Shown one piece after another: positions 27,473-33,567 of a stretch of 64,000 nt of DNA (position 1 is its first letter; each line of letters begins with the position of its first letter). The notes under the pieces were generated by a model. It made no database searches, had not been told where the DNA came from, and saw only the letters and a program-made list of their open reading frames with translations. The position numbers and the translations under genes were made by a program. The DNA comes from Alphaproteobacteria bacterium (GTDB lineage Bacteria > Pseudomonadota > Alphaproteobacteria > Micropepsales > Micropepsaceae): contig JAJPHG010000033.1 in NCBI GenBank assembly GCA_021325375.1, forward strand, positions 230 through 64,229, in the 5' to 3' direction.

Positions 27473-28010
27473 AAGACGCCGCGCCGATCCCAGGATATTG
27501 GTCGTCAACGGCCATCCCGATCCGCGGCCCGAGCGGTTCTGCGCGGCGTTGTGCGACGCCTATCTGCAGGGCGCCAGGGCAGCCGGCCGCAGCGTCGACG
27601 CGATCGCTTTGGGCCTGCTGCCGATCGACGACGAGCCGGGGCTGGAATCTCCCGAAAGGCTCGATGCGCTGAGAATGCTGCGCGCGTGCGACGCGCTTGT
27701 CGCCATCTACCCTCTATGGCTCGACAAACCCCCGCCGTTTCTCACCTGGTTCCTTGAGCTCGGCGCCTGCGAGGCGCGCGCAGCCGCGCAGCGCCCGGCG
27801 CATCTCGTCGTGACGATGGCCATGCCCGCGTTCATCCACCGCTCGCTCTGCCGCGCGCAGGACGCCGCCGATCCCCTCGCCGAGGGCGTCTCGCTTCCGG
27901 GCTGGCAGACAAGCGCGCTCGATTTCGTCGGCTGCGTGAACACGCTGTCGCAGGATCAGCGCGCAGAGTGGCTCAACCGGCTTCGGCAAGAAGGATGCAA
28001 AGGATTCTAA
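27459..28010 (+). CDS. Flavodoxin-fold NAD(P)H-dependent oxidoreductase, divergent
   Basis: ILVVNGHPDP..FCAAL...Y..GA, IYPLWL and VVTMAMPA motifs; overlaps the PAS gene stop. Confidence 0.7.
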   Translation: MRPLERRRADPRILVVNGHPDPRPERFCAALCDAYLQGARAAGRSVDAIALGLLPIDDEPGLESPERLDALRMLRACDALVAIYPLWLDKPPPFLTWFLELGACEARAAAQRPAHLVVTMAMPAFIHRSLCRAQDAADPLAEGVSLPGWQTSALDFVGCVNTLSQDQRAEWLNRLRQEGCKGF

Positions 28011-28687
28011 GCGAGGCTCGCCAGGTCGATCAGCCAGCAGGGGCCGAGCTGCGTGCCGCCGGCCGGCGGGTCCCGCGACAGGACTTGGCTGCGCCGGACG
28101 ATGTCTTGCGCGGCGTCGTCGAGCCGGCCGGTGAGGCGGTAGTCGACGATCCTGGCCGCGCCGCCGATCTTGCCGGGCTTCTCGTCCCGCGCCTTGACCG
28201 CGACCAGCAGCGTGGCCGCGTTCGCGATGTAGAGACCGGCCTGCTCGTAATGCGCCGCGCGGGCCGGATTGATCCTGTCCGGGATGCGCGCGACGTCAGC
28301 CAACTCGTAGGCGCGCCCCGTCCCGGGATTGATCAGCATGGGAAGCACGTCCACGCGCGCCGCGCCCGAGGCGAGATAGGAGCGAAGCCAGGCGGCGCCC
28401 GCGGCGTCGAAATCCTGCGCATAGATCTGTGGCTCCAGGGGCAGCACGGCGACGGTCTGCCATTGCGCGCGGCCTGTCGCCTCTTCCGCGGCGATCCTGT
28501 CGGCGCCGTCGGCGAGCGAGGTCAGGAGGGTCTTGGGCGCGGCCGCAAAGTCGCGGTCCAGCCGGTCGAAGATCTCCGCGAGCGCCGCGCGCACGGCCGC
28601 GTCCTTGCCCAAAAGGTCGCGCTTTCCCGTTATGCCGATCGTCGTCGGCGCGAGAACCGCTCCGGTTTCGGTATTTGTCGTGGGCAT
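28007..28687 (-). CDS. SLOG (Smf/DprA-LOG) superfamily protein
   Basis: IGITGKRDL, TSLADGADRIAA, YEQAGLYIANAATLLVAV and GGAARIVDY resemble SLOG motifs (GxTGHR, LAxGAD, GGT). Confidence 0.7.
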   Translation of the reverse strand: MPTTNTETGAVLAPTTIGITGKRDLLGKDAAVRAALAEIFDRLDRDFAAAPKTLLTSLADGADRIAAEEATGRAQWQTVAVLPLEPQIYAQDFDAAGAAWLRSYLASGAARVDVLPMLINPGTGRAYELADVARIPDRINPARAAHYEQAGLYIANAATLLVAVKARDEKPGKIGGAARIVDYRLTGRLDDAAQDIVRRSQVLSRDPPAGGTQLGPCWLIDLASLA

Positions 28688-28721
28688 GGAAATCCGCGAC
28701 CTCGGCTCGGCGCGCGCGCCG

Positions 28722-29807
28722 CTACATCACGAAATGCGCTTCATAGTTCGATTTCAGGAAATTCACCATTTCGTTGTAGCTCAGCGTCTCCAGCGACGCC
28801 ATCGCCTTGAACTTGTCGGATTGCGCGGCGCCTTCGTTGTAGCGGCGCTCGATCGACTTCAGCGCCGAACGGTAGGCGCGATAGCGCTCGATCTCGGGGC
28901 CGGGACGCAGTCCTTCCTCCAGCGTGCGCGCGGCCAGCGCGAGAATGGCCGCTGCGACGGCGGCGACGGACAGGTATTTCTCCGGCGCCGGCCAGTATCG
29001 GACGCTCACGAAAATGAGCACGTGAAGCAGCACCAGGCCGAACACGCAGGCCATCGCGATGCCGGTCAGCCAGGCGGCCTGAACGCGCGGAAACCGCGAA
29101 AAGGACCGGCGTCTTTTCATGAGCTTGTATTCGGCGAAACGGATCTGCCGTTCGATGCGCAGCATCTGATAGGCGTCGAAGAGCTGGGTCGCGGCCTCGC
29201 CGGGCGCAAGCGTGGGTTCGGAATAGGGAAACAGCCAGGCGTCGTGATTGTAGTCGGTCAGCAGCGTGTCGATGATCGGCAAGCGGCGTTCGACGACCCG
29301 TTTCTTGAACAAGGCGAGTTGGTTGGCGCGCTTGGCGTTGAACGCGTCCCATTGGCCGCTTTCCGCGGCTTCGACGATGTCGGGTGCGAACGCGATCAGG
29401 AACTGGAAATGGAATTGCCGCAGGCGTTCGGTCAGGAAGCGGTTGACCAGCCACTTTTCCTTCCGGTTCGCGAACAGCACGCCGAACGCGCCCAAGAGGA
29501 TGCCGCCGACGCTGAAGACGACCGATACGCCGCATATCACCCAAAGAACGAACCGGTCGTCGCCCCAAAAAGCCTCGCCCGCCGTCGCGACGAGGAAGGC
29601 GGCCGTCACACATCCCACCGCGGAGAAGCCGAACCACCTGCTCGCGGTCTTGGCGTCGTTCGCGTCCTTGTCGAACGGCGCGAACAGCGTGCGCAGCTCG
29701 TCGTGATCGAGCGCGGGATAGATCTTTCCGAAGCGCTCCCGCGCCGTCTTGCGGTCCTCTTCGGTGAAAAGGAATTCATCGTTGAATGGGTAGTCCGCGT
29801 CGTCCAA
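28722..29807 (-). CDS. Membrane protein with two SLATT/DUF4231-like 2-TM modules
   Basis: TTG start with GGAGG RBS; module 1 DKDANDAKTASRWF-TM-TM-KWLVNRFLTERLRQ; module 2 TM-TM-IERYRAYRSALKSIERRY...LE..S..EM..F. Confidence 0.7.
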   Translation of the reverse strand: MDDADYPFNDEFLFTEEDRKTARERFGKIYPALDHDELRTLFAPFDKDANDAKTASRWFGFSAVGCVTAAFLVATAGEAFWGDDRFVLWVICGVSVVFSVGGILLGAFGVLFANRKEKWLVNRFLTERLRQFHFQFLIAFAPDIVEAAESGQWDAFNAKRANQLALFKKRVVERRLPIIDTLLTDYNHDAWLFPYSEPTLAPGEAATQLFDAYQMLRIERQIRFAEYKLMKRRRSFSRFPRVQAAWLTGIAMACVFGLVLLHVLIFVSVRYWPAPEKYLSVAAVAAAILALAARTLEEGLRPGPEIERYRAYRSALKSIERRYNEGAAQSDKFKAMASLETLSYNEMVNFLKSNYEAHFVM

Positions 29808-29966
29808 TGCTTCCTCCGCCGATGGCCGGCTTGACCGCGCAGGTTGTGATGGCCGGGGATGGAACACAAGGCCGGGCCGCTTCCTTCTTGCGCGCGATGC
29901 AGCCGTTTTGCCGCTCCCCCAAACCATGCATTATCGCCCCGGCGAAACGGCGTTGGCAGGACGGTC

Positions 29967-31886
29967 ATGAAGGCAATCGCATGGACGGCGGGATTGATGT
30001 TCGTTGCGGGGGCGGCGGCTTCGCTGCCCATGCCCCTGGGCATGCCGGGCGCGACCCCGCTCCCTAAGGACGTGCGCTTCCCAGGCATGATCGCGCTCAA
30101 TGTGGATGTGCGCGACACGGCGCGCGGCATCTTCAACGTGACCGAGACGATCCCCGTGCCCCAGGCCGGGCCGATGGTGCTGCTCTATCCCGAATGGCTG
30201 CCCGGCAATCACGGGCCGACGGGTCCGATCGACAAGCTCGCGGGCCTCAAGATCACGGCGGGCGGAAAGCCGCTCGCCTGGCAGCGCGATCCGGTCGACG
30301 TCTACGCCTTCCATGTCGACGTGCCGAAAGGTGCCGTCGCGCTCTCCGTCGCGTTCAGCTTCCTGTCGCCGGTCGAGGCGAAGGAGGGGCGCATCGTGGC
30401 GACGCCCGAGATGCTGAACCTGGAATGGAACGCGGTGGCGCTCTATCCGGCCGGCTATTTCTCGCGTGACATCACCTTTGTGCCCGCGATGACGCTGCCG
30501 CAGGGGTGGAAGTTCGCCTGCGCGCTCGACGGCGCGCAAGTGGGCGCGCAGAACATTGTGCGTTTCGCGCCCGTGACGTTCAACACGCTGGTGGATTCGC
30601 CGGTGTTCGCGGGCAAGTACTACGCGCAGGCCGATCTCGCGCCGGGCTCGAAAGCGCCGGTGCGGCTCGACATCTTCGCCGACCAGCCCGACGAGCTCGC
30701 GATGACGCCCGAGCAGCTCGCGCTGCACCGCAACCTGGCGGCGCAGGCGGCCAAGCTCTTCGGCTCGCATCACTACGACCATTACGATTTCCTCTTCGCG
30801 CTGTCCGACCGCATGAGCGGTATCGGGCTCGAGCATCACCGCTCGAGCGAGGACGGCACGCATGGCGACTATTTCCGCGACTGGACGAACACCGCGCCGC
30901 TGCGCGGATTGCTGCCGCACGAATACACCCATTCCTGGAACGGCAAGTTCCGCAGGCCCGCCGATCTGTGGACGGCGAACTTCAACGTGCCGATGCGCGA
31001 CAGCCTTTTGTGGGTCTATGAGGGGCAGACGCAGTATTGGGGCAACGTGCTCGCTTCGCGCTCGGGGCTGTGGAGCAAGGCCCAGGCGCTCGACGCGCTG
31101 GCGATGGACGCCGCCACCTATTCGGAAAGCCGCGCCGGGCGTTCGTGGCGGCCGCTCGCCGACACGACGAACGATCCGATCACGACCATGCGCCGCCCGA
31201 TCCCGTGGCGCAGCTGGCAGCGCAGCGAGGACTATTACAGCGAAGGCGCGCTCATCTGGCTCGATGCCGACACGCTGATCCGCCAGATGTCGGGCGGCAA
31301 GAAGTCGCTCGACGATTTCGCGCGAACGTTCTTCGGCGTCGACGACGGCAGCTATGTGACCGAGACCTATACGTTCGACGATCTGGTGCGGGCGCTGAAC
31401 GCGGTGGTGCCCTATGACTGGGCCAATTTCCTGCGCACGCGCATCGACGCGGTGGCGCCGAACGCGCCGCTCGACGGGCTGGGCCGCGCCGGCTGGCGGC
31501 TCGCCTTCAGCGACAAGGAATCCGACTTCTACAAATCCAACGAGAAGAGCCGCAAGATCACCGATCTGACCTATTCGCTTGGGGTTTCGATCGACAAGGA
31601 CGGCGCGGTCGGCGATGTGCGCTGGGGCGGCCCCGCCTGGAAAGGCAACGTGACCGTCGGCGCCCATATCGAGGCGGTGAACGACGTCGCCTACGATCCC
31701 GACGTGCTGAAGGACGCGATCCGCGACGCCAAGACGAGCCGCAAGCCGATCGTCCTCCTGCTCAAGACGCAGAACCTGTTCCATGCGAACCGCATCGACT
31801 ACTTCGACGGGCTGCGCTATCCGCACCTCGAACGCGTCGCGGGAAAGGCGGATCTGCTCGATGGAATCCTGAGCGCGAGGAAGTAG
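29967..31886 (+). CDS. M61 family (glycyl) aminopeptidase with C-terminal PDZ-like domain, secreted
   Basis: Signal peptide; GLEHHRSS, LLPHEYTHSWNGK (HExxH), LWVYEGQTQY and DYYSEG motifs. Confidence 0.92.
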   Translation: MKAIAWTAGLMFVAGAAASLPMPLGMPGATPLPKDVRFPGMIALNVDVRDTARGIFNVTETIPVPQAGPMVLLYPEWLPGNHGPTGPIDKLAGLKITAGGKPLAWQRDPVDVYAFHVDVPKGAVALSVAFSFLSPVEAKEGRIVATPEMLNLEWNAVALYPAGYFSRDITFVPAMTLPQGWKFACALDGAQVGAQNIVRFAPVTFNTLVDSPVFAGKYYAQADLAPGSKAPVRLDIFADQPDELAMTPEQLALHRNLAAQAAKLFGSHHYDHYDFLFALSDRMSGIGLEHHRSSEDGTHGDYFRDWTNTAPLRGLLPHEYTHSWNGKFRRPADLWTANFNVPMRDSLLWVYEGQTQYWGNVLASRSGLWSKAQALDALAMDAATYSESRAGRSWRPLADTTNDPITTMRRPIPWRSWQRSEDYYSEGALIWLDADTLIRQMSGGKKSLDDFARTFFGVDDGSYVTETYTFDDLVRALNAVVPYDWANFLRTRIDAVAPNAPLDGLGRAGWRLAFSDKESDFYKSNEKSRKITDLTYSLGVSIDKDGAVGDVRWGGPAWKGNVTVGAHIEAVNDVAYDPDVLKDAIRDAKTSRKPIVLLLKTQNLFHANRIDYFDGLRYPHLERVAGKADLLDGILSARK

Positions 31887-31912
31887 GGCGAAGGCCGAAC
31901 GCTCTCCCAAAA

Positions 31913-32091
31913 TGTCATGGCCCGCGAATGCGGGCCACCCAGGTGACATCTGCTCGATCTCAAAAAGAATTGCACGCGGAGACGCGGAATCGCGGAGAAG
32001 AAAAGGACCTCCGCGACTCCGCGTCTCCGCGTGAATCATTTCAATGGTGTGCAGAACCCAACTGGGTGGCCCGCATTCGCGGGCCATGACA
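31913..32091. repeat. Composite nested inverted-repeat element (REP/MITE-like)
   Basis: Perfect 30-bp terminal IR TGTCATGGCCCGCGAATGCGGGCCACCCAG (31913-31942 / 32062-32091) enclosing a 25-bp IR with one mismatch (31973-31997 / 32009-32033). Confidence 0.85.
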
Positions 32092-32308
32092 GATGTGTGA
32101 TTGAACAAATGATCCGCGCCGAACATACGTTCCGTATACGGAAAATAATTTACTTCGCACCCCTTGAACTCTCGGTTGCAATCCCCATCTTCCGCCGGAA
32201 GTCTCTTCGGAACGCGTGAGTGCCGCGCGTCGATTTCGTCATCTCTTCTGTACAGAAGCGCGGCGGTGAAGAGCGAACGTTCAAGCAGTGGAGGGGGGTA
32301 TCCCCTCG

Positions 32309-32584
32309 ATGGTCGAGGTTCAATTGGGCAAGCGTACGGGAGGCAAGGTTGGTGCGCCGTTCGGCAACCGCAACCGGTTGCGGCACGGACGCTATACGCG
32401 CGCGCGAATTGCACGTCACGCAAGGGTGCGGGCGCGGCTGCGCGAGACGCGCAATCTCGTCTGCCGCCTGGATCTTGGGACCAATGCGCCGCGCCTTGGC
32501 GACGAAACGCGCTGCGAACGCGAATTCAATGATCAAGATATTGCGGTTTTGGCGCTATCAGACCATCCCCTTGTGGGGAGGTGA
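32309..32584 (+). CDS. Possible small basic protein with a GAPxGNxN..xHG motif
   Basis: GAPFGNRNRLRHGRYT resembles the GAPKGNxNAxKHG motif of HGGxSTG/terminase-small-type proteins; weak RBS. Confidence 0.4.
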   Translation: MVEVQLGKRTGGKVGAPFGNRNRLRHGRYTRARIARHARVRARLRETRNLVCRLDLGTNAPRLGDETRCEREFNDQDIAVLALSDHPLVGR

Positions 32585-32586
32585 AT

Positions 32587-33567
32587 TCACCCATACACCC
32601 GCGACTTTTGTTCCAGCGCCGCGCGGGCCGCCGCGTACTCTCGCGCGAGGCGGTCTACCAGTTCGCCGGCCGACACCACGGCATCCACCGCGCCAATGCC
32701 CTGGCCGCAGCCCCAGATGTCGCGCCAGGCCTTCGCCTTCTGGTTTCCGCCGGAGTTGAAGTTCATCGCCGACGGATCGGCGACGGGAAGGTTGTCGGGG
32801 TCGAGGCCCGCGAGCTTGACCGACGGGCGTAGATAGTTGCCGTGCACGCCGGTGAAGAGATTGGTGTAGACGATGTCCTCGCCGCCGCTGGCGACGATCA
32901 TGTCCTTGTAGGCCTCGGTCGCGTTCGCCTCCTGCGTGGCGATGAAGGCCGAGCCGATATAGGCAAGGTCCGCGCCCATCGCCTGCGCGCCCAGGATCGC
33001 GGCCCCCGACGCGATCGCGCCCGACAGCGCGATCGGCCCGTCGAACCAGCCGCGCAGCTCCTGGATCAGCGCGAAGGGCGAGAGCTGGCCGGCATGGCCG
33101 CCGGCGCCGGCCGCGACCGGGATCAGCCCGTCGGCGCCTTTCTCGATCGCCTTGCGCGCGAAGCGGTTGTTGATGACGTCGTGCAGCACGATGCCGCCAT
33201 AGGAATGCGCGGCCGCGTTCACGTCCTCGCGCGCGCCGAGCGAGGTGATGACGATGGGAGCCTTGTATTTCGTCGCGAGCTCGACGTCGCGCTCCAGCCG
33301 GTCGTTGGTCTTGTGCACGATCTGGTTGACGGCGAACGGCGCGGACGGCCGGTCGGGGTTCGCGCGGTCATGGGCGGCGAGCGTCTCAGTGACCTCGGCC
33401 AGCCACTCGTCGAGCAGCGAGACCGGGCGCGCGTTCAGCGCCGGGAACGAGCCGACCACGCCGGCCTTGCACTGCGCGATGACGAGCTTCGGGCACGAGA
33501 TGATGAAGAGCGGCGAGGCGATCACGGGCAGGCGCAGCCGCTCGCGCAGGATGGGAGGCAGGGACAC
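32587..33567 (-). CDS. Nitronate monooxygenase family (FMN) oxidoreductase
   Basis: PVIASPLFIIS, VAAGAGGHAG, LSGAIASG, GADLAYIGSAFIAT and DIWGCGQG motifs. Confidence 0.9.
   Translation of the reverse strand: MSLPPILRERLRLPVIASPLFIISCPKLVIAQCKAGVVGSFPALNARPVSLLDEWLAEVTETLAAHDRANPDRPSAPFAVNQIVHKTNDRLERDVELATKYKAPIVITSLGAREDVNAAAHSYGGIVLHDVINNRFARKAIEKGADGLIPVAAGAGGHAGQLSPFALIQELRGWFDGPIALSGAIASGAAILGAQAMGADLAYIGSAFIATQEANATEAYKDMIVASGGEDIVYTNLFTGVHGNYLRPSVKLAGLDPDNLPVADPSAMNFNSGGNQKAKAWRDIWGCGQGIGAVDAVVSAGELVDRLAREYAAARAALEQKSRVYG

Follow-up and report, generated by a model that had tools for sequence, protein, structure and literature searches.

The 64,000-nt stretch of DNA from a Micropepsaceae bacterium analysed here (the window; positions 230 to 64,229 of contig JAJPHG010000033.1, assembly GCA_021325375.1) contains two genes of interest on its minus strand, which we designated gene A and gene B. 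Gene A (28722-29807) begins with a TTG start codon and encodes a 361-aa protein with four transmembrane (TM) helices, a predicted membrane effector, and gene B (28007-28687), which lies downstream on the same strand, encodes a 226-aa stand-alone SLOG-fold protein assigned to the YpsA-like clade. The 34-nt spacer between them (28688-28721, minus strand) holds a GC-repeat palindrome, GGCGCGCGCGCC, without a T-run, and a scan of the coding (minus) strand between the two genes revealed no site resembling a terminator. Each gene is present as a single copy in the 4.77-Mb genome. A contig assembled independently from the source soil sample was identical across the gene A/gene B locus, so the arrangement is not an assembly artefact.

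The junction of the two genes exists in a second population, since a 494-nt contig from a rhizosphere metagenome of a different study spans it. This contig is ~96% identical to the window and comprises the 5' two-thirds of gene B, the spacer and the 3' end of gene A; the spacer is 2 nt shorter, as in the related strains with a deletion at 28710 (runs X2 and X4). Within gene B it shows 17 differences, 7 synonymous and 10 non-synonymous, giving a rough ratio of non-synonymous to synonymous substitution rates (dN/dS) of ~0.5, and none of the 10 replacements falls on the 25 conserved columns. These numbers are small, and they suggest that gene B is functional and probably fast-evolving.

For the start of gene A, a longer open reading frame (ORF) reaching to 29927 was rejected, because the ~360-aa homologues all begin at an equivalent MxxxxYxFND, matching the TTG at 29807. 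A Shine-Dalgarno-like GGAGGA, read from the sequence, lies 4 nt upstream of this codon (29812-29817, minus strand). In the divergent intergenic region between gene A and an M61 peptidase gene, a consensus scan returned one candidate promoter-like element, CTGCCA-18-GATAAT (29930-29959, minus strand), where 0.1 was expected. At the other end of the pair, the stop of gene B overlaps the end of a convergent flavodoxin-like gene by 4 nt.

Fold and family of the two proteins

The AlphaFold2 model of gene A (pLDDT 90.8) is all-helical and, together with hydropathy, places the four hydrophobic helices at residues ~55-78, 85-110, 241-271 and 276-300. They form two 2TM hairpins, each followed by a helix of the ER(L/Y)R type. 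The N-terminal hairpin with its flanking helices scored 23.0 bits against DUF4231, just below the cut-off of 24.7, and E 9e-4 against NCBIfam SLATT_1. Among 44 members of the gene A family, DUF4231 matched 31 (best E 1.9e-8) and SLATT_1 matched 12 (best E 5e-7). We take DUF4231 to be a member of the SLATT clan in Pfam. The assignment of gene A as a four-TM protein whose first module is SLATT/DUF4231 is solid. In the second hairpin, TM3 and TM4 are clear, with a weak SLATT_5 match (E 0.028) that recurs in 3 of the 44 members. Alignment of the N-terminal with the C-terminal half by hhalign paired TM1-TM2-'ERLRQF' with TM3-TM4-'ERYRAY', in register but not significant (E 0.003 at 9.6% probability). 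It is therefore plausible from the sequence that gene A carries two SLATT modules. Foldseek searches of the gene A model against PDB and BFVD returned nothing significant; the best hits, ABC-transporter TM domains (E 0.1 or worse), were discarded, as was a SLATT-annotated viral protein (E 2.5). All residues that are invariant in the family are retained in gene A.

For gene B, the AlphaFold2 model (pLDDT 88, pTM 0.86) shows an alternating strand-helix topology, a Rossmannoid three-layer alpha/beta arrangement. The best Foldseek match was YpsA of Bacillus subtilis (PDB 2NX2; E 1e-7, TM-score 0.55/0.68), followed by ShosA (8zva, E 7e-4), the TRPM5 N-terminus, the SLOG domain of ThsA and the LOG-like TM1055, all of them members of the SLOG superfamily. 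Neither Pfam nor NCBIfam gave a match for gene B itself, and among 11 homologues the SLOG families YAcAr and DprA were matched only below threshold, YAcAr by 6 (best E 0.016) and DprA by 2 (best E 3.7e-4). Because curated-profile matches are absent or sub-threshold, the assignment rests on the fold, and on the model we are confident that gene B is of the SLOG fold and closest to YpsA. A search of PDB sequences with the gene B family profile produced only chance coiled-coil matches.

The motifs of gene B were compared with 147 related SLOG domains. Its glycine-rich loop, GITGKRD (residues 18-24), is intact, with the pattern G18-x-x-G21-K-R-D essentially invariant across the set. The GxD motif (G61-A-D63) has G in 146 and D in all 147 domains; GxD/E is the signature of the YpsA-like clade and is predicted to bind substrate (PMC6459960). 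The third motif reads GGA (175-177). The polar residues R23, D24, D63, E68, D92, R143 and Y147 are invariant. The resemblance to YpsA thus extends to the signature motif and to the stand-alone architecture. In contrast, sequence identity between the two is 16%, and YpsA is coupled to gpsB and cell division and has no membrane-effector partner.

An earlier note on this DNA, made from the sequence alone, had described co-oriented ORFs 34 nt apart, two DUF4231/SLATT-like modules and a SLOG-like protein with two unusual residues. The layout on the minus strand and the SLOG-like protein were borne out, the latter by its modelled fold and its Foldseek matches to YpsA and other SLOG members. The four TM helices and the first module also stand, and the second module is weakly SLATT-like. 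As for the residues, both are present as described, and neither is special: the K in the GxTG[K/H]R motif is the majority state (K in 101 domains, H in 42) and not a change of the pocket, whereas the A in the GG[T] motif is a minority state (T in 132 domains, A in 8, the latter including five full-length fusions).

Fusions and partners in the two families

A profile search of 1.84 billion representative proteins returned 6758 relatives of gene B. Most of the closest ones join the SLOG domain to a membrane module: 94 of the 147 closest SLOG domains (~64%) carry a C-terminal four-TM region of at least 300 aa. These SLOG-4TM fusions are ~560-790 aa long, with the SLOG domain at the N-terminus and four TM helices in the C-terminal ~430 residues, and gene B aligns with the N-terminal domains of the ~680-aa fusions at E 1e-60 to 1e-90. 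Gene B stops 5 residues past its SLOG domain, where these relatives run on into the 4TM module. BLAST found no similarity between the fusion 4TM module and gene A. Alignment of the module with the gene A family by hhalign gave a probability of 77% (E 2e-5) for a stretch comprising the last TM helix and the helices at the C-terminus, and a hidden Markov model (HMM) of the module matched gene A relatives in two colinear segments (TM1-2, and TM3-4 with the following helix) at E 1e-5 to 1e-6. Judging from these profile alignments, the fusion module is distantly related to the gene A family and has the same layout. The window thus holds as two genes the domain combination that most relatives hold as one chain. 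Since the families are fused in most relatives and each gene is single-copy, a chance adjacency of gene A and gene B on one strand, 34 nt apart, would be very unlikely. Recombination of the window's gene A with a fusion-type 4TM module was considered as a source of its extra divergence and rejected, as the fusion HMM hits the sister copies and not the copy in the window.

Some relatives of gene B are likewise split from their membrane module. In two loci (L074, L077) the order is SLOG and then a fusion-type module, opposite to that of the window. In both of these split pairs (the first at L074:2636-7877) a patatin-like phospholipase gene lies divergently upstream, with genes for TIR and nSTAND1 proteins farther out in L074; Table S2 of Yirmiya et al. 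2025 (bioRxiv 10.64898/2025.12.03.692087) also lists 'SLOG Patatin' as a candidate. Two further relatives (P0004, P0007) are stand-alone proteins in unrelated contexts, and more distant stand-alone SLOGs adjoin TPR-S/cyclase and CHAT-TPR proteins. A TIR gene lies within ~6 kb of a SLOG-4TM gene in 5 of ~20 loci (G033, L074, L105, L118, L119).

The partners of gene A homologues were surveyed in 62 GTDB loci (one genome per species). A TIR-domain protein is directly adjacent in ~37 of them (~60%), mostly in divergent orientation, and nSTAND1 is adjacent in 3 more. In a clade from Parvularculaceae and Caulobacterales, 31 of 34 double-SLATT genes are paired with a TIR + FGE-sulfatase (FGS) protein; TIR + TPR and nSTAND1 proteins are the other partners of the family. 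Given the adjacency of TIR, STAND, TPR-S/cyclase and CHAT-TPR proteins in other genomes, both families belong to conflict systems based on nicotinamide adenine dinucleotide (NAD) or nucleotide signalling.

Two observations on this family stand apart from the window. The TIR + FGS partner in the Parvularculaceae/Caulobacterales clade (within L009-L067) is ~600 aa long and lies head-to-head with the double-SLATT gene, for example at L013:4017-5834 (minus strand) and L013:5977-7083 (plus strand); it looks like a family-wide divergent pair of TIR sensor and SLATT protein. The pair resembles type VII Thoeris with an FGS sensor domain, and we found no description of it. In addition, L057 and L060 carry near-identical double-SLATT genes (terminal tree branches of 0.07 and 0.01), each downstream of an nSTAND1-TPR gene, in metagenome-assembled genomes labelled Solirubrobacteraceae (Actinomycetota) and Gammaproteobacteria, pointing to either a very recent transfer or a binning error.

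Several described systems are close to the pair. In the literature, TIR, DrHyd and SLOG are grouped into a single clade of Rossmannoid domains that bind or process nucleotides (PMC9503650, PMC7159879). As summarised in PMC6459960 and PMC9503650, Burroughs et al. 2015 named SLATT for its association with SMODS and SLOG, and predicted computationally that SLOG domains sense or process nucleotides and that SLATT proteins act as effectors by forming nucleotide-gated pores; the pair described here would fall under this predicted coupling. The combination of TIR and SLATT has been validated as type VII Thoeris, in which ThsB acts with ThsH and the signal is canonical cyclic ADP-ribose (bioRxiv 10.64898/2025.12.03.692087). 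Gene A resembles ThsH at clan level, as a predicted SLATT-clan membrane effector, but it has two 2TM modules, the adjacent TIR (ThsB) is missing from the window, and the TIR partners of its relatives are mostly divergent TIR + FGE-sulfatase proteins.

The closest likeness is 'SLOG and 4TM', listed as a putative TIR-associated Thoeris effector (Yirmiya et al. 2025, Tables S1/S2, bioRxiv 10.64898/2025.12.03.692087). It joins a SLOG domain, homologous to gene B, with a four-helix membrane module. However, it is a single polypeptide with an adjacent TIR, whereas the window has separate genes with the membrane gene first and no adjacent TIR, and gene A belongs to another, distantly related 4TM subfamily. 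In ThsA of type I Thoeris (SIR2-SLOG), the SLOG domain senses a TIR-made signal and activates the attached effector; this protein is a weak structural match to gene B (TM-score ~0.3, E ~0.05-0.1), and its effector is a SIR2 NADase in the same chain and not a membrane protein. The earlier note had set the pair apart from the named defence systems, which does not hold, as both families are linked to TIR elsewhere and 'SLOG and 4TM' is already a listed candidate.

Distribution of the pair and its surroundings

The same gene A/gene B pair was not found elsewhere among 62 GTDB loci, 19 metagenome loci and 11 exact-protein contexts. A gene A-type protein was missing from all 19 metagenome loci that hold gene B relatives, and no stand-alone YpsA-like SLOG beside a double-SLATT gene was found elsewhere in the loci searched here. 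The pair is not a conserved or recurrent system; it is lineage-specific, its junction recurring only in the ~96%-identical soil strain and in one metatranscriptome contig. Neither gene turned up in 36 further species of the genus, one of which (G033) has a SLOG-4TM fusion with a TIR gene after it.

Two metagenome contigs are collinear with the window over the IOR subunits, a nitronate monooxygenase (NMO) and the M61 peptidase, at 88-95% protein identity. Both have gene A at the same site and lack gene B, and synteny with the relatives stops exactly at the 3' end of gene A; in this respect the pair does sit at the edge of a synteny break, much as had been proposed. The vertical conservation in a housekeeping context that the earlier note held to speak against its idea is found for one half of the pair, gene A being syntenic in close relatives where the SLOG gene is absent. 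The gene A of the window is 64-65% identical to the two syntenic orthologues, which share 76% with each other. Because these values (64-76%) lie far below the 88-94% of the flanking genes, gene A is, by sequence identity, fast-evolving, with the window copy the most diverged.

The GC content at third codon positions (GC3) of gene A and gene B is 0.83-0.89, as in their neighbours. No compositional sign of recent transfer was seen in GC3 for either gene, and hence neither gene arrived recently. Among the congeners, the inversion of M61 relative to NMO in other species left no clean empty site for comparison. We also found no remnant of a fused 4TM module downstream of gene B or anywhere in the genome. 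Its conserved residues being intact as well, nothing points positively to gene B as what was left after deletion of a fusion, though such an origin is conceivable.

Beside gene A, the region 29967-33567 of the window was compared with loci L095 and L096, in which comparison M61 is inverted relative to NMO; in other species the two genes are co-directional and ~150 nt apart. Between the M61 peptidase and NMO genes, at the rearranged junction, lies a ~185-bp nested-palindrome repeat (31910-32095). It folds into a long hairpin (-62 kcal/mol for 120 nt), and blastn returned 453 high-scoring segment pairs for it within the genome. In metagenomes from soil and rhizosphere its contig depth sums to ~600, and the central ~100 bp occurs there in many variants. 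The repeat resembles a miniature inverted-repeat transposable element (MITE) or an element of the repetitive extragenic palindromic (REP) type, and its Rfam matches were spurious miRNA-hairpins.

The neighbours of the pair encode a cytochrome bd oxidase, a SleB-type hydrolase, a Crp/FNR regulator, a PAS protein, the flavodoxin-like protein, the M61 peptidase, NMO and IOR. The window's contig (C6) has no TIR_2 match; the three TIR_2 genes of the genome lie on contigs C35, C17 and C37, with contexts and partners of their own. On C37, a TIR + TPR protein of 529 aa (C37:28767-30356) is encoded 1.7 kb upstream of a 535-aa TPR-S protein (C37:32058-33689), which has a SLOG-like 'GALAAGADIVIAEALL' stretch missed by the gene B profile; this pair may be a separate TIR-signalling system. 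On C35 (C35:270929-273972), the gene for a 487-aa TIR_2 protein overlaps the next ORF on the same strand, which is 505 aa long and without a Pfam match, and a large ORF lies upstream, possibly an uncharacterised two-gene TIR system on a mobile element. The third (C17:107145-109289) is a 689-aa protein with an N-terminal TIR, a multi-TM region and a C-terminal adenylate/guanylate cyclase.

Candidate roles of the pair

We tentatively read the pair as a lineage-specific, split module of sensor and membrane pore that answers an NAD-derived signal made in trans, with a probability of about 0.45. According to this proposal, gene B would be a cytoplasmic YpsA-type SLOG protein that binds a nucleotide signal. 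The signal would most plausibly be an NAD or ADP-ribose derivative, supplied by a TIR-type enzyme in trans or arising during infection. Ligand-bound gene B would then contact gene A and switch it into an oligomeric, membrane-permeabilising state, and the opening of gene A would arrest or kill the cell (abortive infection). The many SLOG-4TM fusions back the idea of a sensor coupled to a membrane effector, which the earlier note had put forward. Its further expectation of a recurrent pair fails, since no gene B relative lies within 6 kb of a gene A homologue in any of the 62 GTDB loci, and ~40 of these loci have TIR or STAND instead.

That absence is the first of several points that weigh against the proposal. 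Six other contexts of gene A's nearest clade (L071/72, L078, L079, L080/81, L120, L121) have neither SLOG nor TIR, and gene A can evidently stand alone, because its orthologues occur in the IOR-NMO-M61 synteny without gene B. The relatives of gene B, for their part, pair with the other 4TM family and with the SLOG gene first. The substitutions specific to the window's gene A are evenly spread, at 8-13% in every region, with no interface-like cluster, and in gene B A177 replaces the 90%-conserved T of the GGT motif. The neighbours are metabolic and regulatory and form no defence island, and no model in PADLOC-DB v2 matches either protein, their relatives or the SLOG-4TM fusions. The earlier note's remark that no cyclase, TIR or SIR2 gene accompanies the pair was correct, and no signal-making enzyme lies near the two genes. 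Two examples of 'SLOG and 4TM' failed to protect E. coli when tested (Yirmiya et al., Table S2). In favour of the proposal, a 151-nt contig from a soil metatranscriptome bridges the gene A/gene B junction with one mismatch and is consistent with co-transcription, though coverage is thin and even and DNA carry-over is possible.

It is also conceivable, though unlikely, that the two genes are neighbours with independent functions: a vertically inherited orphan SLATT-type gene, and a stand-alone or truncated SLOG gene that landed in the variable region downstream of it and works by itself, if it works at all. Orthologues of gene A are found at this site with no gene B beside them and with different downstream genes in all three relatives; against this stands the finding of two single-copy genes 34 nt apart on one strand, from families that are fused in most relatives. 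Gene B ends where its relatives continue into the 4TM region, but no fused remnant lies downstream. The rough dN/dS of ~0.5 in the related strain is fairly relaxed, yet all conserved residues of gene B are kept and the strain differences avoid the conserved columns. Stand-alone relatives in unrelated contexts (P0004, P0007) fit such independence as well, whereas the GC3 of both genes, being that of their neighbours, does not suggest that either landed here recently.

We give a still lower probability to gene B being an enzyme and not a sensor, one that makes an ADP-ribose-type signal opening gene A or degrades it. A signal-making gene B would replace the TIR partner, and a signal-degrading one would set the firing threshold of gene A. 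The wider gene A family neighbours a TIR enzyme, TIR and SLOG fall with DrHyd into one Rossmannoid clade, and the invariant polar residues of gene B would suit catalysis, though the threonine of GGT is replaced by alanine. Moreover, gene B lacks a domain for sensing phage of the kind present in the TIR partners (FGS, TPR or STAND), and a SLOG attached to a membrane module, in some fusions beside a TIR, occupies the position of a sensor, as in ThsA. A bolder form of this idea is a TIR-less, SLOG-driven Thoeris-like system in which gene B has displaced the TIR and makes or edits an NAD-derived messenger that opens the double-SLATT pore. We regard it as a long shot; if true, a YpsA-clade SLOG would for the first time be seen to signal through catalysis.

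By analogy with YpsA, the closest solved structure, which has non-immune roles in cell division and oxidative stress in Firmicutes (PMC6459960), the pair might form a metabolite-gated (e.g. NAD-related) membrane channel or stress module, as the housekeeping context (cytochrome bd oxidase, FNR/Crp, PAS, flavodoxin-like, M61 peptidase, NMO) and the vertical retention of gene A in several related genomes would allow, but this is improbable for a gene that evolves much faster than its flanks, was not found in any of the 36 congeneric species searched and belongs to a family tied to TIR and STAND conflict proteins.

For the split sensor and pore module that we favour, a coupling of SLOG with SLATT had been proposed as early as 2015, and the candidate Thoeris effectors already include SLOG + 4TM, a kind that is unvalidated. 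What is new here is the split into two genes, the reversed order, the different SLATT subfamily and the lack of a TIR. Taken by itself, the locus adds a rare, local variant to a theme known from computational work. Its interest lies in the wider family of SLOG proteins with a membrane module, which has thousands of members, predicted effectors of TIR signalling, with no demonstrated function or ligand. The split version would be a convenient handle on them, as ligand screens could be run on a purified, soluble 226-aa SLOG protein free of any membrane domain, and the 361-aa membrane protein could be studied with or without its partner. The double-SLATT family, which is fast-evolving and swaps partners (TIR-FGS, TIR-TPR, STAND, SLOG or none), may in turn inform how such modules are rewired.

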